Shown here piece after piece: positions 1,728-17,049 of a stretch of DNA of 64,000 nt. Position 1 is the stretch's first letter. Every line of letters begins with the position of its first letter. This DNA comes from Promethearchaeia archaeon (GTDB lineage Archaea; Asgardarchaeota; Lokiarchaeia; Sigyniarchaeales; SOKP01): NCBI GenBank assembly GCA_029856145.1, contig JAHQWK010000001.1:160001-224000 (forward strand), given 5' to 3'. Below the pieces are notes generated by a model. That model ran no database searches, was not told the DNA's origin, and saw only the letters and a list, made by a program, of their open reading frames with translations. A program made the position numbers and the translations under genes.

Positions 1728-2243
1728 CTACTTTCTCAACTTTAAAGCAGTTTTTAGAAAAAGCTTTTCTAAATCTATTAGATACCCAATTAAAGGAGTT
1801 AGGCTCACCTTATTCAAATTCTTTTCAATTGTGACAAATCCCATTCTTTTTAATTCTTTAATATCTTCTAAAACTCCTTTTTTTTTTCTTATATCTTTGA
1901 TTTTTTGAATTGTAGTTTCCCCGGAACTATTAAAACAACATATTAAGGTACAAAATAATGTTGCTGCTAATCTAGGGTTTCCATTAAATGGATTTGCTGA
2001 TATAATTTCATTTGTTTCTGGATCGAAAGAAATATACCAATATGAGTTCAGAGGGTTAAATCTAATTTGAAGATTTAAAGGCTCAAGATAATTAGATAAA
2101 TTATTTATTAAATTTTGAAAATAAATCGACTTATTCTTATCTTTAACATTTAAAGCATTAAGAATTTCTCCTTCAGTAGCTCCTATCTTAGATTTGTATG
2201 TTTTTCTACTTAATAAATACATCAAAACTGTCAATTCATTCAT
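1728..2243 (-). CDS. Kite-like (ScpB/Nse1-Nse3-type) tandem winged-helix SMC accessory protein
   Basis: 171 aa; pattern LINNLSNYLEPLNLQIRF..WYI / LAATLFCTLI / IKELKRMGFV..VSLTP fits two winged helices; last gene of the SMC operon. Confidence 0.65.
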   Translation of the reverse strand: MNELTVLMYLLSRKTYKSKIGATEGEILNALNVKDKNKSIYFQNLINNLSNYLEPLNLQIRFNPLNSYWYISFDPETNEIISANPFNGNPRLAATLFCTLICCFNSSGETTIQKIKDIRKKKGVLEDIKELKRMGFVTIEKNLNKVSLTPLIGYLIDLEKLFLKTALKLRK

Positions 2244-2249
2244 AGTGAT

Positions 2250-2906
2250 TCATCTCTCTTCTAAATATAAAAAATTTGATTCTTTTTGAAATTTAATTTT
2301 CCCCAATTGGAGTAGATGTAAAAGATATACGAAATATTCAAAGAGTTTTATTTGATCATGTTCATCTTCAAAAATTTCGTCATAAGAACACGGTAATTTG
2401 CTTTTAATTAAATCAAAAAAAGTCATCATTTTTTCAGTAAATTTCTGTTTGGGTATTTCTAATAAAAAGTTTGCTTTAAAATCTATTTTATCAATAGGTT
2501 CAATTATCAAAGGTTCCTTTTTCTCATTAACCAATTTATCTTTAGACGATTCAAGAAATTTTAAAGAAATTGCATCAACATTAAAAGGAGCTCTCCAGCA
2601 ATCATCTAATAATTGATGAATTTCTAAATCATTTGGATTTGTTTTTAAAAAATCGATAAATTTCTCTTTATTATCTAAAAAGTCTAGAAATATTCTTAAT
2701 TCTTCAAATTTCTGACTGAGAAGATGAAAGGCACTCTTATAAGTCATAGAATATTTGTTTAAGTTAAAGATATTAAGTGAATCTTTTAAATTCTCAAAAA
2801 TTGGCACTAATTCTATATCTAAAAGAGAAATCTCTCCGGAAAGGACTCTTGTTTTAATAGTTTCAATCATTTTATTTATTTCTTCAGAGAAATCTTTGTA
2901 TTGCAT
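2250..2906 (-). CDS. Kleisin-like (ScpA/Nse4-type) subunit
   Basis: N-terminal GEISLLDIELVPIF resembles the ScpA N-terminus; C-terminal FVYLLHLLQLGKIKFQKE fits the kleisin winged-helix motif; 12 nt downstream of smc. Confidence 0.75.
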   Translation of the reverse strand: MQYKDFSEEINKMIETIKTRVLSGEISLLDIELVPIFENLKDSLNIFNLNKYSMTYKSAFHLLSQKFEELRIFLDFLDNKEKFIDFLKTNPNDLEIHQLLDDCWRAPFNVDAISLKFLESSKDKLVNEKKEPLIIEPIDKIDFKANFLLEIPKQKFTEKMMTFFDLIKSKLPCSYDEIFEDEHDQIKLFEYFVYLLHLLQLGKIKFQKESNFLYLEER

Positions 2907-2918
2907 TTTTATTGAATC

Positions 2919-5900
2919 CTATTTAATCTTTATAATTTTTGGTTTAAATATGGAAGAAATTTCTTTTTTTCCTACTCTTGCTATCCCGATTAGTTTTTCT
3001 GCAAGCAAGAATAATGAATTTGAAGATTTTGGTAAGAACATAAATAACTGAATCGGATTTTGCTCTAATGTTGATTTAATTAATTGATATACTACTTCTG
3101 AATTCTTTTCATCTAAAAACATCCCGGGTTCATCAAGCATAGAAAGTGCAGAAGGCTTAATTTCTTGCAAAGATAAGATCAAGCATATTGAAATAAGAGA
3201 AACCTGCCCTCCGCTTAACGCAGTAAAAGATTTTAATTGCTCTTTTGAGGTCGCTGCTTTAATATCAACGCCTAAGTTTTCAAAATCTCCTATTAATCCA
3301 AGATAACAATAAGATTTAATCTGAGAATCTTCAAATTTTTGATTAACCCTCTTTTGGAGATTATCTAGCAAGACACTAAATTTTTGATAATATGTTTTTT
3401 CCATTTTATTTTCTGTTTTCATTGCTGCTTTAACATCTTTCTCCAAGTTATTTTGATTTTTTGAGATTTCCTTAAGAGATGTTAATATCTGGTCTTTCTC
3501 AATCAGAATAGAATCTTCAACATCTAAATATTTGAGTAATTCTTTATCAATTTTAGAAATATCGGTTTTAATTTCCTCTATAGAACGAATTTTAATTATT
3601 TTTTCTGAGATTAAAGGACCTATTTCTGAATTAATTCTAGCTAAATCACTCTTTTTTGATTCAAGATCTTGATTATAAGAGGTTAACTTGATATTTTCTT
3701 GCTCATAGTTTAAGGTTATTTGAATATTCTTCTTCTCTAAATCACTCTTTTTGTTTTTTAATAATATTATTTCTCCTTTTAAATCAGCAATTTCATCTTC
3801 AGTTATTTTAATTTCCTCTTCCACATTTTCTAACTGACGATATATATTAAATGCCGTTTTATCTGCTTTCTGAAAAGCTTCTTTTTTTGTTTCATGCTCT
3901 TTTTGTATTGAATTCTTTTCAAATGTATGTTTATTTAATTTATCTTTTACTTCTTTTAGAATTTCTAAATTTTCACTTAATTTTAAATCCCATTTTTTCT
4001 TATCTTCATTGAGGAAAGTCAATTCATTAGGTATTTCTTTAATCCTGTCATTCCACTTGAAAAATTCTGGATCTGTTTGAGATTTTAACTCTTTAATTTG
4101 ATAATCATGTTCTTTAATTTCACTTTTAAGGTCTAAATTGATATTTTCTAATTCATGCATTTGATTGTATAACTGATTCTTTTTTGATGTAATTCTTTGT
4201 TTTTGGTTAAAATTGTAGAGGAGATCATTGAAAGACTCTTTTTTTTTAAATGTATCTTTTTGTATTGTATCTAATTTGGCTTGTTCAACTCTTAATTCTG
4301 AAATGGTATCATTTAAAGACTTTATTTCAGCTTCTAATACCTTGGATTGCTCTTTTTGAGTACCAGCACTTAATAATCCTTTTAATCTTTTTAAATACGG
4401 TGTTTCAAAGACATATTTATAAGAAATTATTTGTTCTCCCTTTAATGTTACACATTTTCCTTTGAAATTGAGTGTTTGATAGATTTGTCTCCCTGAGTGG
4501 TAATCACTTACAACAAGGCAATTTTTTATTTTTGAATAAATAACTTTTTTAATATCAATATCATCATCAATGATTTTAATTAATTCAGCTAAATAACCAA
4601 CCACATCAGTAGCAGAAATTTTCATAAGGGGTGTAATACTTATATTTTTAGGAAGATAAATATTACAGTATGCACCATATTTATCTTTTAGTCTCTTTAA
4701 CAAGTTTAAGGTATCCCAATCGTTAGCTACAAAACTATAGAGCAATCTTTCACCTAAAACTGATTCTATAGCATAGCTTAACTCATCATTATATTTTAAA
4801 TAATCAATAATAGGCCCCTTTACTTTTAATCCTCTTTTTTTTATCTCATCTTTAAGAATAGTTATACTTGAAGGGAGAATTACTCGTCGTTCTCTAAGCG
4901 AAGCCTGTAATATCTTTAATTTCTTTAATTTTTTAGATTTTGTGAAATCTAACTGCTTTATTTCGGATTCAATTTCAAATAATCTTAATGATGCTCTTTT
5001 CAGTTCTCTATCAAATTGAGTTATTAGATTTTTGGAGGGATTTTCTAAAAACCATTTATTTTTTTCTAATTTGTGCTCGATATCTTTAAAACTTTGAAAA
5101 AGCTGATTAATCTCATCATTAAAAACCTTTATTGATTTCTCATTCTCTTGGATTTTTGATAATCTTTCTTTTTTCTCAAGATTTATTTGATTGAATTTAT
5201 CAAGAAGTTCCCTATTTTGCTTTATTTTTTTTATTAATTGGTCCTGTTCAGTTATTAATTTATCAATATGTAATTCTGCATTTTTAGTTTCCTTTTTTAT
5301 TGCTTTTAATTCGTTTTCCATACTACTTTTCTGTTTCTCGAAATTATCAATTAATCTATTGAATTCCTTAATCTTTGCTGATAGCTCGTCTAACTCTTGT
5401 TTTGCTAATATTTTGTCTTTTTGCCAATTTTGAATTTTTGCAGCTAAATCTTTCTTTTTATAACTTAGCGCCCCAACTTCTTTTGAAAGTTTATTAATGT
5501 TTAATTCCTTATCTGAAATTTTATTTATTAATGCGTTTATTTCCTTATCGGAAATTTCCTTTTTCTTCTTAATTCCATCTAATACAGATTTAACATTTTT
5601 AATTATCTCTTCAATATTTATAATTTCTTTCTCTAAGCGATCTCTATTGGCCCATAAGAGCTCATCAGTAAATTTCGTTTTAATATCTAACAATTTATGC
5701 TTTTTTTCTAGGCGCTCCAATTTAGGATTTAATAGCTCCAAGCTAATATTTAATGTGTTTTTTCTACTTTTTAATGATTGAAGGTTATTGTTTAAATTTA
5801 GTACATTAGTTTTTTGTTGTAAAATTTCATCTCTCAACTCTTTTAATCCAATACCTTCCTCAAGAAAAGTACATAATTCTGTTGGTTTTAAATTTTTAAT

Positions 5901-6380
5901 AGCATCAATTTTCCCCTGGCTAACAATCGCAAACTGATTATCTGGATTGATATTTAAATCAGAAATTAATTTCTGAATATCTTGAGCTGATATTTTTTTG
6001 AAGTCATTATCACTCTTTCTTTGAATATTGAAATATGGAGATTGCCCCCTAATAACATATCTTCTTATTTTTATAATTTCTTCCACATTTTGAATATGAA
6101 CCTCAACCATTGCATGATTTTGTCTATTTCTAATGAAATTAGACCATTTTTTATATCGTTCATCTCTTTCATTACTCCCTAGAGCAAACTTAATTGCTTG
6201 AAATACAGAAGTTTTCCCACTCCAATTTGGGCCTACAATAATCACGAATTTTGATTTACCGAAATCAACTTCATCCTTCTGGAAAGATAAAAAATTTTCT
6301 AAAATTACTTTTCTAATGAAAATTCTTTTATTTTCCATTGAATTGATTTCATTTTTATTTGTTCGTGATCTAGAAGCCAA
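2919..6380 (-). CDS. smc: SMC ATPase, SMC5/6-like
   Basis: Walker A GPNWSGKT, Q-loop IVSQG, long coiled coils, hinge VKGPIIDYL..AIESVLG, signature LSGGQ, Walker B MLDEP; TTG start preceded by a GAGGT SD-like motif. Confidence 0.93.
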   Translation of the reverse strand: MASRSRTNKNEINSMENKRIFIRKVILENFLSFQKDEVDFGKSKFVIIVGPNWSGKTSVFQAIKFALGSNERDERYKKWSNFIRNRQNHAMVEVHIQNVEEIIKIRRYVIRGQSPYFNIQRKSDNDFKKISAQDIQKLISDLNINPDNQFAIVSQGKIDAIKNLKPTELCTFLEEGIGLKELRDEILQQKTNVLNLNNNLQSLKSRKNTLNISLELLNPKLERLEKKHKLLDIKTKFTDELLWANRDRLEKEIINIEEIIKNVKSVLDGIKKKKEISDKEINALINKISDKELNINKLSKEVGALSYKKKDLAAKIQNWQKDKILAKQELDELSAKIKEFNRLIDNFEKQKSSMENELKAIKKETKNAELHIDKLITEQDQLIKKIKQNRELLDKFNQINLEKKERLSKIQENEKSIKVFNDEINQLFQSFKDIEHKLEKNKWFLENPSKNLITQFDRELKRASLRLFEIESEIKQLDFTKSKKLKKLKILQASLRERRVILPSSITILKDEIKKRGLKVKGPIIDYLKYNDELSYAIESVLGERLLYSFVANDWDTLNLLKRLKDKYGAYCNIYLPKNISITPLMKISATDVVGYLAELIKIIDDDIDIKKVIYSKIKNCLVVSDYHSGRQIYQTLNFKGKCVTLKGEQIISYKYVFETPYLKRLKGLLSAGTQKEQSKVLEAEIKSLNDTISELRVEQAKLDTIQKDTFKKKESFNDLLYNFNQKQRITSKKNQLYNQMHELENINLDLKSEIKEHDYQIKELKSQTDPEFFKWNDRIKEIPNELTFLNEDKKKWDLKLSENLEILKEVKDKLNKHTFEKNSIQKEHETKKEAFQKADKTAFNIYRQLENVEEEIKITEDEIADLKGEIILLKNKKSDLEKKNIQITLNYEQENIKLTSYNQDLESKKSDLARINSEIGPLISEKIIKIRSIEEIKTDISKIDKELLKYLDVEDSILIEKDQILTSLKEISKNQNNLEKDVKAAMKTENKMEKTYYQKFSVLLDNLQKRVNQKFEDSQIKSYCYLGLIGDFENLGVDIKAATSKEQLKSFTALSGGQVSLISICLILSLQEIKPSALSMLDEPGMFLDEKNSEVVYQLIKSTLEQNPIQLFMFLPKSSNSLFLLAEKLIGIARVGKKEISSIFKPKIIKIK

Positions 6381-6401
6381 ATTACCTCATCCTTTCATTT
6401 A

Positions 6402-7652
6402 TCATTTACCAAACGCTTGTTTTATTAGATCTACCCTCTTTTTAGCCTTCTCTAAGTTTATTTGTGCTTTGTTTGGAGAATCATTTAAAATAAATGGATA
6501 TCTTGCTAACATTTTCATATCATTATCCTCCAACGGCTCTTTTTTATTTAATTTATCAATAATAATTGTAAGTTCTGTATAATTCTTAGAAGCCGCATCT
6601 TCATATAATTGATTTAGCATGAAGTCTGAAATTCGTGATTCTCGAATTCCATTAACAAAATCCCTAATATCTTTGATATCTTCTACTTTTTTAAATATTT
6701 GGGTCGGAATTTTTTCATTATTTTGATGAATCTCTGCCTCTAACTCAATATTTGAGTTTTTTTCTGAATTTTGAGTCATAGAATTAGGAATATATTCACC
6801 CGAAACAATCATATCAATCAAAACATCGGTGATTTCATTGCTCATTTCATTCAATTCTGAATTTAAGAAATGTTTGAATATTCCTACTTTCAACAATTGC
6901 AAAATGTCTTTAACTTCCCAATTTTCTGTATAATTTACGATATCATTAATATCGAAGACTATTTTCGGGTTTTTTTCTAAAAAATCTTTCAATACAGTTT
7001 CTCGCTCTATTCTATTCAATAATGGGACTTTAATAAAAAGATCAAAGGTAGAATATATTTTATTAGACACACTTTTAATGTCTTGAATCTCATAATTTAT
7101 CCAAACTAAAATTAAATTAGAGTCAATAAATTTATAATCAAAACTCTTGTTTTGCCAAGCATTTAGAAAAACTTCTAATAAACTTTTATTTTCAAATTTT
7201 TGTCTGAATACAGGTTGTTGATTAATCAATAATACTTTTTTTTCCTCAACTTTATCAGGATCTCTCGTATCCGTTTCAGTTTTCTCTTCTTTTTTTCCAT
7301 CTTTTCCAAAAGCTTCTAATATTGAAATAAAACTTTTTAAAAATTTATTAGGATTCTTAAGAAGTTCAATATCGTTAAATTCAATTAAATCTAAGTAGTA
7401 ATTTTTAGTAATTAGTTTGATATAATCTAGTATATCCGTTCCGAGATTAAGATTAATTAAAATGGCTCCTTTTGGCTCTATATAACCATTTAAAGTTGGA
7501 TCGTCATGATTAGTTAACATAGCCTTGAGAAAATTAATAATATCATTATATTTATCCCGATAGAAAATATCTTCTTTATTAATATTAATTTCTGAAGGTG
7601 AAATTACCTTAAAATACTTTGAAAATTCCGGAATGTCATTTAATTCTTTCAT
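6402..7652 (-). CDS. Degenerate (probably catalytically dead) classic-clade AAA+ domain protein
   Basis: EPKGAILINLNLGTDI aligns to PKGxLLxGPPGTGKT; KKVLLINQ occupies the Walker B position; FDLFIKVPLLNRIERETVLK..DINDIVNYTENWEVKDILQL aligns to the AAA lid; catalytic K and DE residues are absent. Confidence 0.7.
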   Translation of the reverse strand: MKELNDIPEFSKYFKVISPSEININKEDIFYRDKYNDIINFLKAMLTNHDDPTLNGYIEPKGAILINLNLGTDILDYIKLITKNYYLDLIEFNDIELLKNPNKFLKSFISILEAFGKDGKKEEKTETDTRDPDKVEEKKVLLINQQPVFRQKFENKSLLEVFLNAWQNKSFDYKFIDSNLILVWINYEIQDIKSVSNKIYSTFDLFIKVPLLNRIERETVLKDFLEKNPKIVFDINDIVNYTENWEVKDILQLLKVGIFKHFLNSELNEMSNEITDVLIDMIVSGEYIPNSMTQNSEKNSNIELEAEIHQNNEKIPTQIFKKVEDIKDIRDFVNGIRESRISDFMLNQLYEDAASKNYTELTIIIDKLNKKEPLEDNDMKMLARYPFILNDSPNKAQINLEKAKKRVDLIKQAFGK

Positions 7653-7886
7653 TTACAATTTTCCTTTAATTCTTCCTTAGTTTTATGAACATAAATTACA
7701 AGACATTTAACAAATATATATTTAGCGGTACTCATAGTTAGCGATAATTAGATCCCCGACAAAAACCGTAAAATTTATAAAATCGTATTTTGGAAGAAGA
7801 ACTTCAAAAATTAATTTGAAGACTAAAAATAACACGCACATTACTTTATTAAAGTAAATAATTAAAAAAAAAAGAGATAGAATTTA

Positions 7887-8135
7887 TTATTTTTGTTCCC
7901 AAGGCATACAGAAAAATCCCTTTTCTAACTCATATTTTGAGAACAATCCACAACCAAAACAACTACACCCTTTATTTTCTATTTGATCTCTGGGTTTAGT
8001 AGATGGTCCTCTTGAACAGAAAAGAGCATGCGGCTCAAATTCATTGAGTTGATTTGGTTTGAATGAGGGGCAAGGTCCGCAAAATTTTCTACATTCGTTC
8101 ATGGATTCCTCAGTATCTGGAACCGGTTTTGGCAT
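7887..8135 (-). CDS. Small Cys-rich DUF2769-like metal-binding protein
   Basis: CRKFCGPCPS, LFCSRG, CSCFGC, FFC; the ATG at 8135 is preferred over the upstream TTG at 8177. Confidence 0.7.
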   Translation of the reverse strand: MPKPVPDTEESMNECRKFCGPCPSFKPNQLNEFEPHALFCSRGPSTKPRDQIENKGCSCFGCGLFSKYELEKGFFCMPWEQK

Positions 8136-8260
8136 ATTTTTCACTTGTTTTTTTAGATTTTTAAATATTTTTTTCAAAATTTTGAATTACGATCAAAGTA
8201 AGAAAGTTTATTTTTAAATTTAATAATTATAAACTATTAATTTTAGAGAAAAGGATAAGA

Positions 8261-8656
8261 TTAAGCTAATTCTTGATTTAATAAATCTAGATAAGATGAA
8301 ATCTTTTCTTTAACTATGTCATAATGCGTAAACTTACCTTTTTTCCATCCTTTAATTAAACCAGCATTTTCAAGAATTTTTAGATGATGGGATATAGATG
8401 GTTGTGACTCATCTAAAGCCGCTTCTAATTCACATACACATCTATCTTTTTCTTTTAAAACATTTATAATAATCAAACGTTTCTTATTCGCTAAGGCATT
8501 TACAAAGTTATTTAAATTATCAAACCTAAAATTTTGAATTAATTGATCTCCAATCTCTCTTAATTTTTTAAAATGCTGATCTGGGTTTTCCACATCTTCA
8601 CATTTAATCAATTTAGCTTTAATTTCTTCCTCATGGTCAATATCCATTTTAAACAC
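8261..8656 (-). CDS. arsR: ArsR/SmtB family repressor (As(III)-sensing type)
   Basis: CVCEL motif and SQPSISHHLKILENAGLI HTH; divergent from acr3; start may be the ATG at 8647. Confidence 0.9.
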   Translation of the reverse strand: MFKMDIDHEEEIKAKLIKCEDVENPDQHFKKLREIGDQLIQNFRFDNLNNFVNALANKKRLIIINVLKEKDRCVCELEAALDESQPSISHHLKILENAGLIKGWKKGKFTHYDIVKEKISSYLDLLNQELA

Positions 8657-8717
8657 TTCTTTTAAGGCAAAATTTTAATTATTCAATATTTAAATAGGAT
8701 AAACAACTTTATAATTA

Positions 8718-8751
8718 TTTATCCAAATCAATAAATTTTTATTTGAATAAA
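8718..8751. promoter_or_regulatory. Candidate ArsR operator (imperfect inverted repeat)
   Basis: TTTATCCAAAT-N12-ATTTGAATAAA (1 mismatch) in the arsR/acr3 divergent intergenic region; the AT-rich background weakens significance. Confidence 0.4.
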
Positions 8752-8813
8752 AATTTTGTTATTTAAGATTAATACTGCCCTTTATCAAAATAATTAAAAA
8801 AAACTGAAATATC

Positions 8814-9842
8814 ATGAGTGAAGAAGAAGGAGAAGGTAGAACAATTAGCTTTTTCGAGAAATTTCTCCCACTTTGGGTAGGTTTATGTATCCTCATAGGC
8901 ATTATTCTTTCTCAGGTTATTCCTGGTATTAGCCAAGCTATTAATTCTTTCAGTATCGGTCAGATTTCCATACCAATAGGCATTTGTCTCTTCCTAATGA
9001 TGTATCCAGCAATGTTGAATTTACAAGTTTCGGAATTGAAAAAATTAGGGAAAAATCCTAAACCAATAATTTTAACACTTGTATCTAATTGGTTAGTGGC
9101 TCCATTTATAGGTTTACTTATGGCCCGTATATTTTTACAAGGTTATGAACAATTAGTATTCGCTATTATTTTACTAAGTGCAAGTCCATGCACAGCAATG
9201 GTTTTAGTGTGGGGTTGGATGGCAAAAGGTAATCAGGAACAGAATGTAGTAAATACAAGTCTAAATACGATAACTATAATATTTGGTTATGCTCCTATGG
9301 TGGCATTATTAACAGGTATTCAAAATATTCCTGTTGATTGGCTATTATTATTGGTTTCGGTTTTTATCTTCATTGGACTTCCATTACTAATAGGAATAAT
9401 TAGCAAAAGACTTTTAATATCGTCTAAAGGCGTAGATTGGTTTAATAATATTTATCGACCAATAGTTGGAAAGATATCGATTATGGCACTATTAACAACC
9501 CTGGTTTTACTTTTCTCTATGAATGGAAATGTTCTAATTACTAATCCAGGCTATCTTTTATTAATTTCAATTCCACTCTTACTTGGATTCGTAATTGTAG
9601 TTGGATATAATATAATTATAACCAAACTATTCAAATTAAAGTATCGCGAGGCAATTATCACAGTAATCATAGGTTCATCAAGTCATTTTGAAATTGCTAT
9701 TGCTACAGCTATTGCTATGTATGGAATTGGTTCAATCGCAGCATTGGGCACTACAATGGGATTATTCTGGGAGGTTCCAGTGATGTTATTAATTGTATAT
9801 TTAGGTCGATTTTTAAGAAAGAGAGGTTTTTGGAAATCCTAA
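8814..9842 (+). CDS. acr3: Acr3 arsenite efflux transporter
   Basis: About 10 TM segments; motifs FFEKFLPLWV, MMYPAM, NWLVAPF, SPCTAMVLVW, SSHFEIAIA, EVPVML. Confidence 0.95.
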   Translation: MSEEEGEGRTISFFEKFLPLWVGLCILIGIILSQVIPGISQAINSFSIGQISIPIGICLFLMMYPAMLNLQVSELKKLGKNPKPIILTLVSNWLVAPFIGLLMARIFLQGYEQLVFAIILLSASPCTAMVLVWGWMAKGNQEQNVVNTSLNTITIIFGYAPMVALLTGIQNIPVDWLLLLVSVFIFIGLPLLIGIISKRLLISSKGVDWFNNIYRPIVGKISIMALLTTLVLLFSMNGNVLITNPGYLLLISIPLLLGFVIVVGYNIIITKLFKLKYREAIITVIIGSSSHFEIAIATAIAMYGIGSIAALGTTMGLFWEVPVMLLIVYLGRFLRKRGFWKS

Positions 9843-14550: not shown

Positions 14551-17049
14551 TTAAATTAAATATGATCCCGTTTTTGATGCAATGTTATGCTTAATATCCT
14601 CTGGAGTACCTTTGGCGATTATTTCTCCACCTTTAGGACCACCTTCAGGACCTAATTCGATGATGTAATCTGCGTATGACAAGATTTCGGGATCATGTTC
14701 AATAATAATGACACTATTTCCTTCTTGTACTAATTGGGATAATAACTGCATTAATTTAACTACGTCATAAAACGATAATCCTACAGTGGGTTCATCTAGA
14801 ATATAGAGAGCATTACCTTTTCGAGCTTTTCCTAATTCTTTTGCCAGTTTAATTCGTTGTGCTTCTCCACCGCTTAACGTTGGAGCGGGTTGCCCAAGTG
14901 TAATATAGCTCATTCCAATCTCATCAAGAATTTTAAGTATCTTTGAAATGTTGGTTTGAGATCTGAATAATTCCAATGCTTCACTTACCGTCATGTCCAA
15001 CACCTCAGAAATTGTTTTACCTTTATATTTAATTTCTAAAATTTCTGGTTTATACCTTAAACCTTTACATTCTTTACAAAGGATTGTAAAACTACTAAGA
15101 AATGAAATTTGTAAATCTGTTTCACCAGTACCTTTACAAGAAGGACATCTCCCATTATCAGAATTATAAGAAAAATGTCCAGCTTTATAATTTCTCTTCT
15201 TTGCTTCTGGTGTTTTAGCAAATAAATTCCTAATTTTATCCCAGATTCCTATAAAAGAACATGGAGTAGAAGTTCTCACTCTCGAGATTGGTTTTTGATT
15301 TACCACAATTACTTCATCAATATTCTCCCATCCTTCAATAACACCAGAATATTCTAAAAGTTCATCACCATTTATTTCATTTTCACTATTGTTATCTGTT
15401 TTTTTTTGTGGCAAATCAACTCCTCGCTTGAAATATGGTGTTATCAAAGGAACTAAAGTATCTAATATGAGAGAACTTTTCCCTGATCCAGAAAGGCCAG
15501 CAATCCCAACCATCATTCCCAAAGGAATTTTCACAGTAATATTTTTTAGGTTATTTGTTTTTGCACTTCTAATTGTCAAAAATTTAGTATGTTTATCAAA
15601 ATTTTTACGTTCCTCAATAGATTTCTCTTGTAATTTAATATTTCCCCCTAAAAATTGCCCCGTATAAGAATTTTCTACTTTCTTTATTCCATCTAACATA
15701 CCTTGATATACTATTTCCCCTCCGTTAACTCCTGCTCCAGGACCAATATCAATTATCTCATCAGCAATATCTATGAAACGTTTATCATGTTCAACAATGA
15801 TGACAGTATTTCCTAATTCTTTCAATTGTTTTAATATATTAATTAGGGACTCTTTTTCTTGTTCATGTAAACTCATGCTGGGCTCATCTAATATATAAAT
15901 AAGAGAATCAAGACCAGCATCTAAATGAGTCATGAGAGACAACCGTTGAAGCTCACCACCACTCAGTGTAGGTAAGGAACGATTTAGATGCAAATATGAG
16001 AGACCAACATTGACCATGCGTTTTAAGCCTTCTAATAAACTATCTAACATTGATTTACCTTGTGGACTTTGTATATGTTGTTTACTTAGACCTCCCAAAA
16101 ATTTTACCAATTCATCAATAGTCATCATAGCTAACTTACCAATATGTTTATCTAAGATTTTAATCTCTCTAGCTTGTGTATTTATACGATAACCACCACA
16201 TTCTTCGCATTTTTTATTTGACATGAAATTTTTATGAATCTTTTGTCTTCTATAAGCACTTTTTGATTCTGAGAGAGCACGCTTTACATGTGGAATGATT
16301 CCTTCAAATTCTCTTTCTAAAATTCCAGTAAATGTTTTTGAATCCCACTCAAACGGTAATTTTTTACCACTACCATATAAGAAAACGTGCCTTACTTTTT
16401 CTGGCAAATTCTTATATGATGTTTTAATGTCAAAATCATAAAATCTTGGTAATTGCTCAACAAAACGGATTTGATCAGCAAAAACAGCCGAACCCGCTTT
16501 TGTTATTTGAATTAGGGTTCTGTTATTATCCTGAACGATTAAGGCCTCAGTAATATTCACAGTATAACCCCTTCCTTTACAAGCTAAGCACATGCCTGAG
16601 GGTTCATTAAACGAGAAATGTTTGATTTGCTTTCTGTCTACGACCATTCCACATAAATCGCAATCTAGATTATCATTAACAGGTTCCTTGCAGATAGGAC
16701 ATAGTAAAACACCTTCTGTAGCATAAAGCATTCTGAGTAAACCATAAATTCCTGTCTTAGTACCCACTGTTGAGCGTGGATTGAATACACGTGTGGTTCG
16801 TTGTTCCACTGCTACTGTGGGACTTAGACCTTCAATTAAATCAAAAGGTTTCTCATCTTCAAACTTTGGTGGAAAGCCGATAGATTGAAGATAACGATTC
16901 ATCCCCTCATCAAATATAATATCAAATGCAAGACTTGACTTTCCAGAACCAGATACCCCTGTAATTAGAATTATTTTCCCTTTATGAATATTTACATTAA
17001 TATTTTTTAAATTATGGATTCTTGCACCTATTATTTTTATCTGATTCAT
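14551..17049 (-). CDS. uvrA: Class II UvrA-like ABC ATPase (UvrA2/DrrC type)
   Basis: GARIHNLKN, two ABC modules (GVSGSGKSS and GLSGSGKSS, LSGGE twice, LDEP), Zn fingers; the first Zn finger CPIC-N9-CDLC lacks the UvrB-binding insertion. Confidence 0.92.
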   Translation of the reverse strand: MNQIKIIGARIHNLKNINVNIHKGKIILITGVSGSGKSSLAFDIIFDEGMNRYLQSIGFPPKFEDEKPFDLIEGLSPTVAVEQRTTRVFNPRSTVGTKTGIYGLLRMLYATEGVLLCPICKEPVNDNLDCDLCGMVVDRKQIKHFSFNEPSGMCLACKGRGYTVNITEALIVQDNNRTLIQITKAGSAVFADQIRFVEQLPRFYDFDIKTSYKNLPEKVRHVFLYGSGKKLPFEWDSKTFTGILEREFEGIIPHVKRALSESKSAYRRQKIHKNFMSNKKCEECGGYRINTQAREIKILDKHIGKLAMMTIDELVKFLGGLSKQHIQSPQGKSMLDSLLEGLKRMVNVGLSYLHLNRSLPTLSGGELQRLSLMTHLDAGLDSLIYILDEPSMSLHEQEKESLINILKQLKELGNTVIIVEHDKRFIDIADEIIDIGPGAGVNGGEIVYQGMLDGIKKVENSYTGQFLGGNIKLQEKSIEERKNFDKHTKFLTIRSAKTNNLKNITVKIPLGMMVGIAGLSGSGKSSLILDTLVPLITPYFKRGVDLPQKKTDNNSENEINGDELLEYSGVIEGWENIDEVIVVNQKPISRVRTSTPCSFIGIWDKIRNLFAKTPEAKKRNYKAGHFSYNSDNGRCPSCKGTGETDLQISFLSSFTILCKECKGLRYKPEILEIKYKGKTISEVLDMTVSEALELFRSQTNISKILKILDEIGMSYITLGQPAPTLSGGEAQRIKLAKELGKARKGNALYILDEPTVGLSFYDVVKLMQLLSQLVQEGNSVIIIEHDPEILSYADYIIELGPEGGPKGGEIIAKGTPEDIKHNIASKTGSYLI

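Follow-up and report, generated by a model that had tools for sequence, protein, structure and literature searches.

In a 64,000-nucleotide stretch of the genome of a Lokiarchaeial Promethearchaeia archaeon (assembly GCA_029856145.1, contig JAHQWK010000001.1, positions 160,001 to 224,000; hereafter the window) we analyzed a four-gene operon encoding an AAA-like protein, an SMC (structural maintenance of chromosomes) protein, a kleisin and a kite. With good confidence we take it to encode the second SMC complex of this genome, belonging to the SMC5/6-related class and led by a Cdc48-derived, non-catalytic AAA-like subunit or regulator. The analysis established what the four proteins are, how deeply they diverge from the canonical Smc operon of the same genome, and that the order of the four genes is conserved.

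Gene organization

The list of open reading frames (ORFs) of the window contains four consecutive ORFs on the minus strand at positions 7652-1728. Together with the region preceding them the features are:

7653..7886, minus strand: upstream intergenic region of 234 nucleotides, putative operon promoter, read from the sequence
7652..6402, minus strand: AAA-like protein (P0001), 416 amino acids
6380..2919, minus strand: SMC protein (P0002), 1153 amino acids, TTG start
2906..2250, minus strand: kleisin (P0003), 218 amino acids
2243..1728, minus strand: kite (P0004), 171 amino acids

The gaps between the genes are 21, 12 and 6 nucleotides, in agreement with the original prediction made from this DNA, which had described four same-strand genes with exactly these distances. 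The start of the SMC gene is ambiguous. The TTG codon at 6380 is preceded by a GAGGT box, and an alternative ATG at 6338, 14 codons downstream, agrees better with the N-terminus in the family alignment and gives a first gap of 63 nucleotides. Either start leaves the overall picture unchanged. The 234-nucleotide spacer ahead of the operon is A/T-rich, with an oligo-T run after the upstream DUF2769 gene, a TATA-like A/T-rich box (AAATATATATTT) some 55-70 nucleotides ahead of the ATG of the AAA-like gene, and an AAGGAA box near this ATG. Judged by this consensus-level resemblance, the spacer is likely to contain the operon promoter.

The SMC protein and the canonical Smc operon

Both halves of an ABC-type head and a central hinge are present in the 1153-residue SMC protein, as is characteristic of the SMC superfamily. 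Pfam SMC_N matched with 56.5 bits (cut-off 40) and SMC_hinge with 27.5 bits at residues 520-633 (cut-off 22.5). The ATPase motifs, GPNWSGKT (Walker A), SQGKI (Q-loop), LSGGQ (signature) and MLDEPGMFLD (Walker B/D-loop), are invariant in a family alignment covering five Asgard families (A5), and in the Q-loop Q155 does not vary within the family. Lokiarchaeial orthologues with 58-85% identity number more than 120. With the NCBIfam equivalog models for canonical Smc, TIGR02168 and TIGR02169, the protein scored 193 bits, below their cut-offs of 567 and 729.

The genome of 3.55 Mb has another SMC locus on contig C20. It encodes a Smc of 1483 amino acids, a protein that matches ScpA weakly and a ScpB with 117 bits on PF04079, in the order Smc-ScpA-ScpB. 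The window SMC is 26-29% identical to this canonical Smc, and in the heads only. The low, head-only identity and the scores below the equivalog cut-offs indicate that the window SMC is a deep paralogue and not a recent copy. From its motifs this divergent second paralogue would be expected to be an active ATPase and to dimerize via the hinge. Because the operon contains a single SMC gene, the complex would be homodimeric.

The canonical Smc on C20 (locus L175:1392-5843, minus strand) has an unusual feature of its own. It is about 300 amino acids longer than other Asgard canonical Smc proteins, gave no Pfam SMC_hinge match at E ≤ 1e-3, and left positions of ca. 451-696 of TIGR02169 unmatched, whereas another Asgard canonical Smc (L176) scored 112 bits on the hinge. 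The canonical Smc of this genus may be hinge-less or carry a replaced hinge, with the second SMC retaining its hinge.

The kleisin and the kite

Searches of Pfam and NCBIfam with the kleisin, the kite and the AAA-like protein gave nothing usable. The kleisin and 14 orthologues had no Pfam match, including PF02616 and PF08743 (Nse4_C), and the kite is not recognized by the ScpB model of Pfam. When the kleisin family alignment (A2) was compared by hhalign with canonical Asgard ScpA, a probability of 94% (E 1.5e-7) was obtained over 178 columns, an alignment that begins in the N-terminal helices and takes in the C-terminal winged helix. In the cross-control with ScpB the same alignment gave 0.4%, and all cross-controls remained below 0.5%. 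The best profile matches in the PDB, both weak (E 0.04-0.16), were the C-terminal winged-helix domains of P. furiosus ScpA in 4i99_C (E 0.039) and 5xns_C. An Atlas lead for the kleisin is a Bathyarchaeota cluster in which 18% of the members carry Nse4_C. On the basis of these profile comparisons the 218-residue protein is a kleisin, remotely related to the ScpA superfamily and ending in a winged helix.

For the kite family (A3) the hhalign comparison with canonical Asgard ScpB gave a probability of 86% (E 4.6e-6) over 160 columns, with 0.3% in the control. An AlphaFold2 model of the kite (pLDDT 86.4) has two winged-helix domains. Foldseek searches of the PDB with this model returned ScpB on top (3w6j, 1t6s, 2z99, 4i98; E 1e-4, TM up to 0.61), followed by JetB, Nse1, MukE, Nse3 and MAGE proteins, a list that amounts more or less to the kite superfamily. 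In a sequence-based comparison with the PDB the kite profile hit nothing but generic winged helix-turn-helix regulators. The Pfam MAGE model was touched by one of 17 kite members (E 0.067), and no RING domain was found on the kite. The model thus identifies the 171-residue protein as a kite with a tandem winged-helix fold, structurally nearest to ScpB rather than to Nse1/Nse3. Both small proteins therefore turned out to be what the original prediction had proposed, the kleisin by hhalign with negative controls and the kite by its model, Foldseek and hhalign.

The AAA-like protein

The first gene encodes a protein without a Pfam or NCBIfam match; the cut-off of PF00004 was not reached. Its family is small, with 105 representatives among 1.84 billion proteins. 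The AlphaFold2 model has a pLDDT of 67.6 and shows the following parts:

residues ca. 60-210: AAA+ alpha/beta core
residues 214-283: lid
residues 291-341: disordered linker
residues 343-414: conserved C-terminal helical domain

Foldseek matched the model to Msp1, Vps4, p97-D2, FtsH and spastin (E values of 6e-8 to 3e-6) and to katanin, with a probability of 1.0, and VIA-align gave a Z of 11.4 to Rix7, PCH-2 and p97 over 163-168 residues. The Walker A region of P0001 reads G62..N67-L-N-L-G71-T-D73 and is without the lysine, the Walker B region is LLINQQ, and the pore-loop region, as read from the alignment, is short and without an aromatic residue. The same degeneration was found in 18 Loki-type sequences, which have N-x-N-x-G-T-D with no lysine at the Walker A position and INQQ at Walker B, NQ replacing DE.

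Less degenerate orthologues occur in other Asgard lineages. Thor-type proteins read GRVLLIGPPGTDF at Walker A (GPPGTDF) and scored 40 bits with Pfam AAA, above its cut-off. The Jordarchaeial orthologue (Freyarchaeum/Jordarchaeum), encoded upstream of an SMC of 835 amino acids, reached 76 bits with Pfam AAA and also matched AAA_lid_3. It keeps a P-loop, GRSGTGKT, and its nearest relatives are Cdc48, p97, AFG2 and Rix7 (E 1e-38). In hhalign the Jordarchaeial proteins aligned with the P0001 family with a probability of 99.7% (E 3e-25) over 337 columns. The alignment includes the C-terminal domain, which is the best-conserved part of the family across lineages.

Fold and sequence relationships thus identify P0001 as a degenerate AAA+ protein of the classic clade, derived from a Cdc48-like ATPase, and the leading pseudo-AAA+ gene that had been proposed is confirmed by the AAA+ fold and the degenerate motifs. 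The complete set of catalytic AAA+ motifs (GxxGxGK[ST], hhhhDE and arginine fingers) was found in none of the Loki-, Thor- and Jordarchaeial types. Since the lysine of the P-loop, the acidic residues of Walker B and an aromatic pore loop are missing from the window protein, it would not be an unfoldase. As to the link to the proteasome or Cdc48 that had also been suggested, its one basis is that the AAA domain is nearest to the Cdc48/p97 subfamily.

Conservation of the gene order

Genome searches were confined to the phylum to which the window belongs, represented by 201 genomes. All four genes were present on one strand and in the same order in 58 of 60 Lokiarchaeial loci, which are species representatives with enough flanking sequence, and the other two were without only a detectable kite. 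The order AAA-like gene, SMC, kleisin, kite was also found in 16/16 loci from six Asgard families, where neighboring genes usually overlap or nearly abut. The gene order is conserved far beyond chance, and the four-gene arrangement first noticed in the window holds across the Asgard families sampled. In the host family the operon is near-universal and single-copy (38/40 genomes). Close homologues of the operon proteins are all named Promethearchaeota or Lokiarchaeia.

The kite was found in seven families. The AAA-like gene was detected in six of these with a profile built from Loki-type sequences only; this profile missed the Jordarchaeial gene, and in the seventh family (f19, Jordarchaeia) it was hhalign that found it. 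A related-locus search with the AAA-like family alignment (A1) led to Lokiarchaeial metagenome-assembled genomes only, P. syntrophicum not being among them.

Such a gene might still be a conserved neighbor whose function has nothing to do with the SMC ring. Its C-terminal domain is without a known fold partner and the published descriptions of these operons give three subunits only, which would suit a bystander. However, the AAA-like gene is kept directly 5' of the SMC gene, often overlapping it or within ca. 20 nucleotides, in at least six Asgard families, although identity has dropped to 16-23% in the Thor-type orthologues and in those of families f2, f8 and f26 and is undetectable by blastp in Jordarchaeia. 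It occurs as one copy per genome, in the same families as the kite among the sampled genomes, and in the loci examined nothing resembling it precedes the canonical Smc operons. A bystander role is quite unlikely in view of this pattern. The AAA-like protein is probably a fourth subunit or regulator, which would associate physically with the ring.

Three features of individual loci were noted. In a Thor-type genome (G103) about 2 kb including an ORF of 157 amino acids is inserted between the kleisin and the kite (L044:6975-9024); no other interruption of the operon was seen in the 16 loci. The Jordarchaeial SMC proteins (L046:5870-8377 and L047:10115-12613) are only 832-835 amino acids long and scored 148 bits with SMC_N and 44 bits with the hinge model; a short protein that has head and hinge implies strongly reduced coiled-coil arms in comparison with the Loki and Thor types. 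In the same Jordarchaeial loci (Jordarchaeia/Freyarchaeum) a ubiquitin-type gene set is found immediately upstream of the operon (L046:146-4150 and L047:14350-18123). It is composed of a UQ_con E2, a ThiF E1, a RING plus SprT/M48-like protein and a ubiquitin-like ORF. Eukaryotic SMC5/6 has E3 activities attached, and by analogy this adjacency is suggestive, but it was seen in one genus only and may be a coincidence.

Relationship to SMC5/6

Two types of archaeal SMC protein, canonical and SMC5/6-related, have been distinguished (Yoshinaga & Inagaki 2021, PMC8665677), and TACK and Asgard archaea with two complete SMC operons have been described (van Hooff, Raas, Tromer & Eme, bioRxiv 10.1101/2024.01.07.573240). 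According to the latter authors the first operon is related to condensin and cohesin and has a ScpB-like kite, and the second is related to SMC5/6 and has a Nse4-related kleisin and a Nse1/3-like kite, an example being genes _495 to _497 of P. syntrophicum. In the literature the archaeal clade is placed as the sister of SMC5/6, Nse4 and Nse1/3. The kleisin tree of van Hooff et al. strongly supports a clade of Nse4 with the TACK/Asgard proteins, and monophyly of the eukaryotic kleisins is rejected (p-AU 0.002); monophyly of the two eukaryotic SMC clusters is not rejectable (p-AU 0.317) (bioRxiv 10.1101/2024.01.07.573240). A second SMC-kleisin-kite operon in Asgard and TACK archaea is thus already known (PMC8665677; bioRxiv 10.1101/2024.01.07.573240). 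As the genome studied here has exactly one operon of the ScpB type and one other, the window operon falls by elimination into the published SMC5/6-related class.

An AAA gene or any fourth gene goes unmentioned in the papers on these operons, including the main text and supplement of van Hooff et al., and a full-text literature search combining Asgard, SMC5 and AAA found nothing. The conserved degenerate AAA partner therefore appears to be undescribed. The idea of an undescribed loader or regulator, put forward for this gene in the original prediction, is the part that survives as new.

We took the specific kinship with eukaryotic SMC5/6 from the literature; our own similarity scores were equivocal. 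Similarity was probed with a full-length profile, a C-terminal head profile, a 100-residue C-terminal fragment and a motif check, and the outcome was equivocal to negative. The full-length profile of the type-2 SMC family (A5) and that of canonical Asgard Smc (A6) gave the following scores on PDB targets:

SMC3: A5 252 bits, A6 513 bits
SMC2: A5 247 bits, A6 469 bits
SMC4: A5 231 bits, A6 488 bits
SMC6: A5 174 bits, A6 88 bits
SMC5: A5 170 bits, A6 below the listing floor of ca. 85 bits
Rad50: A5 98 bits, A6 below the listing floor of ca. 85 bits

The SMC6 score doubles from the canonical to the type-2 profile (88 to 174 bits), yet stays under the level of SMC1-4. The gain on SMC5/6 may be unspecific, because the score on Rad50 rises too. 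Leads from the Atlas, namely Bathyarchaeota neighbours, some with Nse4_C, and MAGE, point to the SMC5/6-related class.

The original prediction had read three strings of the SMC protein (LNINPDNQFAIVSQGKI, GPI..YL..AIESVLG..SFV and GMFLDEKN..QLFMFLPK) as marks of the SMC5/6 lineage rather than of archaeal Smc. All three were found in the translation, but their value as lineage marks was not upheld. Where the window SMC has the quoted Q-loop motif the canonical Smc on C20 reads NIDPDGSNQFVLQGKI. As a marker the motif was rejected, since it is present in SMC5 but equally near to canonical Smc.

Several observations speak against the assignment proposed here. The type-2 profile scored higher on SMC3, SMC2 and SMC4 (231-252 bits) than on SMC5 and SMC6 (170-174 bits), and the C-terminal SMC head gave 117 bits with P. 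furiosus Smc as compared to 73 with SMC5 and 63 with SMC6. The kite is nearer to ScpB than to Nse1/Nse3 in structure: in the Foldseek search Nse1 (7dg2_A) ranked 12 (E 2e-3) and Nse3 (7dg2_C) ranked 22, both under the ScpB entries. On the side of the AAA-like protein, the model of P0001 is of moderate confidence, the C-terminal domain had no PDB match by sequence profile, and even in the Jordarchaeial protein DE is replaced by DN, sensor-1 is Ser and the RPGR arginine-finger stretch is deleted. From these replacements it may be that no member of the family, including the Jordarchaeial one, ever hydrolyzes ATP.

With respect to the minimal homodimeric SMC5/6 complex of the original prediction, the combination of SMC, kleisin and a single kite was found as described and a homodimer would follow from the single SMC gene, but the affinity to SMC5/6 did not emerge from similarity, Smc and SMC1-4 giving higher scores than SMC5/6 with the window SMC and with its family. 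This result and the ScpB-like kite would agree with an operon that is a fast-evolving, lineage-specific duplicate of Smc-ScpAB, the SMC5/6-related label being a long-branch artefact. The higher score of the type-2 profile on Rad50 (98 bits versus less than 85) points the same way insofar as the gain may reflect a more generic profile, as does the fact that monophyly of the eukaryotic SMC clusters was not rejected (p-AU 0.317; van Hooff et al.). However, two independent published phylogenies group such archaeal SMC proteins with SMC5/6, the kleisin tree joins Nse4 strongly with the TACK/Asgard proteins against eukaryotic kleisin monophyly (p-AU 0.002), and the SMC5/6 score is doubled with the type-2 profile (174 versus 88 bits). 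The paralogue also occurs in several Asgard classes and, according to the Atlas leads, in Bathyarchaeota, which argues that it is old. We consider such a duplicate unlikely, though it is the strongest competitor of the SMC5/6-related assignment.

The combination of SMC, kleisin and kite is also found in Wadjet, and JetB was among the structural matches of the kite, so that defence against plasmids or phages by an SMC-based system, as in Wadjet or Lamassu, comes to mind. PADLOC gave weak generic matches of the SMC to LmuB, JetC and mad3 (at most 55 bits) but none of the kleisin, the kite or the AAA-like protein. No gene for a JetD/Toprim nuclease or another effector is present in the cluster, whose neighbors are an arsenic locus (ArsR/DUF2769/Acr3) and a pair of GTPase genes. 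The near-universal single-copy occurrence (38/40 genomes) and stable order are the behavior of a core gene and not of an island. Measured by the defining features of Wadjet, matches to the JetA, JetB and JetC models plus a JetD/Toprim effector, the cluster does not qualify; a defence identity was rejected and is highly improbable.

Proposed mechanism and comparison with known systems

For the SMC5/6-related complex that we favor, the following mechanism can be proposed. The SMC protein would form a homodimer joined at the hinge and act as an ABC-type ATPase, the short kleisin would bridge the two SMC heads, and a dimer of the tandem-winged-helix kite would bind the kleisin. As in Smc-ScpAB, SMC, kleisin and kite should in this way form a ring that entraps DNA or extrudes loops. 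The fourth protein descends from a Cdc48-like AAA ancestor. In Loki-type genomes it has lost the lysine of the P-loop, the acidic residues of Walker B and the pore loop, and in all lineages it retains the C-terminal helical domain on its flexible linker. It could not work as an unfoldase in Loki or Thor genomes; its part would be that of an adaptor, a loader or a brake acting on the ring of SMC and kleisin. Most likely it is an adaptor whose AAA shell and tethered C-terminal domain would dock on SMC heads, kleisin or arms and regulate loading or the ATPase cycle.

More specifically, and tentatively, the AAA protein could be a genuine fourth subunit, originating from a Cdc48-type module that was recruited in an Asgard ancestor, still binds nucleotide in Jordarchaeia and has become a nucleotide-free adaptor in the Loki and Thor lineages, its C-terminal domain gating loading, head engagement or release. 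We rate the odds of this full scenario as somewhat short of even. If it is true, the protein would be a prokaryotic counterpart of the Nse5/6-like loader/regulator layer of eukaryotic SMC5/6, and no SMC complex would have had a partner from the AAA family before it.

The operon resembles the published archaeal SMC5/6-related operons in being a second paralogue beside canonical Smc-ScpAB, in the order SMC-kleisin-kite, in a kite that is missed by the ScpB model of Pfam, and in its Lokiarchaeial host, as for P. syntrophicum. It differs in that the papers give three subunits while here a degenerate AAA gene leads, its class membership being assigned by elimination and leads. With Smc-ScpA-ScpB it shares the architecture, the gene order, the full set of SMC ATPase motifs with the hinge, and remote kleisin and kite homology. 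In contrast to that system it stays below the equivalog cut-offs, has no ScpA or ScpB Pfam match and includes the extra AAA-derived gene.

The eukaryotic SMC5/6 holocomplex consists of Smc5-Smc6, the kleisin Nse4, the kites Nse1/Nse3, Nse2 and the Nse5/6 loader. The window complex would be similar in being of the kite type and not of the hawk type and in having an extra factor, neither kite nor kleisin, beside the core. Unlike the eukaryotic complex it contains only one SMC and one kite. The kite is without a RING, Nse2 and an alpha-solenoid Nse5/6 are absent, the fold of the accessory protein is that of AAA+, and similarity in sequence and fold to SMC5/6, Nse1 and Nse3 is weaker than that to Smc/ScpB. 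To AAA proteins of the Cdc48/p97/VAT type, P0001 is similar in fold, and its Jordarchaeial orthologues are nearest to them by sequence. P0001 differs from these in having a single AAA module, no N-domain and an added orphan C-terminal helical domain.

SMC5/6 is the least understood of the eukaryotic SMC complexes, and its origin has been traced to the second archaeal SMC operon. If the AAA-derived partner is present throughout the sampled Asgard lineages, the ancestral complex would not have been the minimal three-part machine of current scenarios. Small, presumably homodimeric and with just one extra factor, the archaeal version would offer a tractable system for accessory control of SMC loading or ATPase cycling, and the graded decay of the AAA motifs from the Jordarchaeial via the Thor to the Loki type would provide a natural series for an ATPase becoming a structural subunit.

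Neighboring genes

The arsenic-type locus adjoins the operon on its upstream side. It occupies positions 7887-9842 of the window and consists of DUF2769 and ArsR-family helix-turn-helix genes divergent from a gene for a transporter of the SBF/Acr3 type. Further along, an ORF of 832 amino acids at 14551-17049 (minus strand) also matched SMC_N. It was rejected as a related SMC and identified as an UvrA-like ABC protein in which a UvrA DNA-binding domain is combined with two ABC_tran domains; its neighbors are a glyoxalase and a methyltransferase gene.

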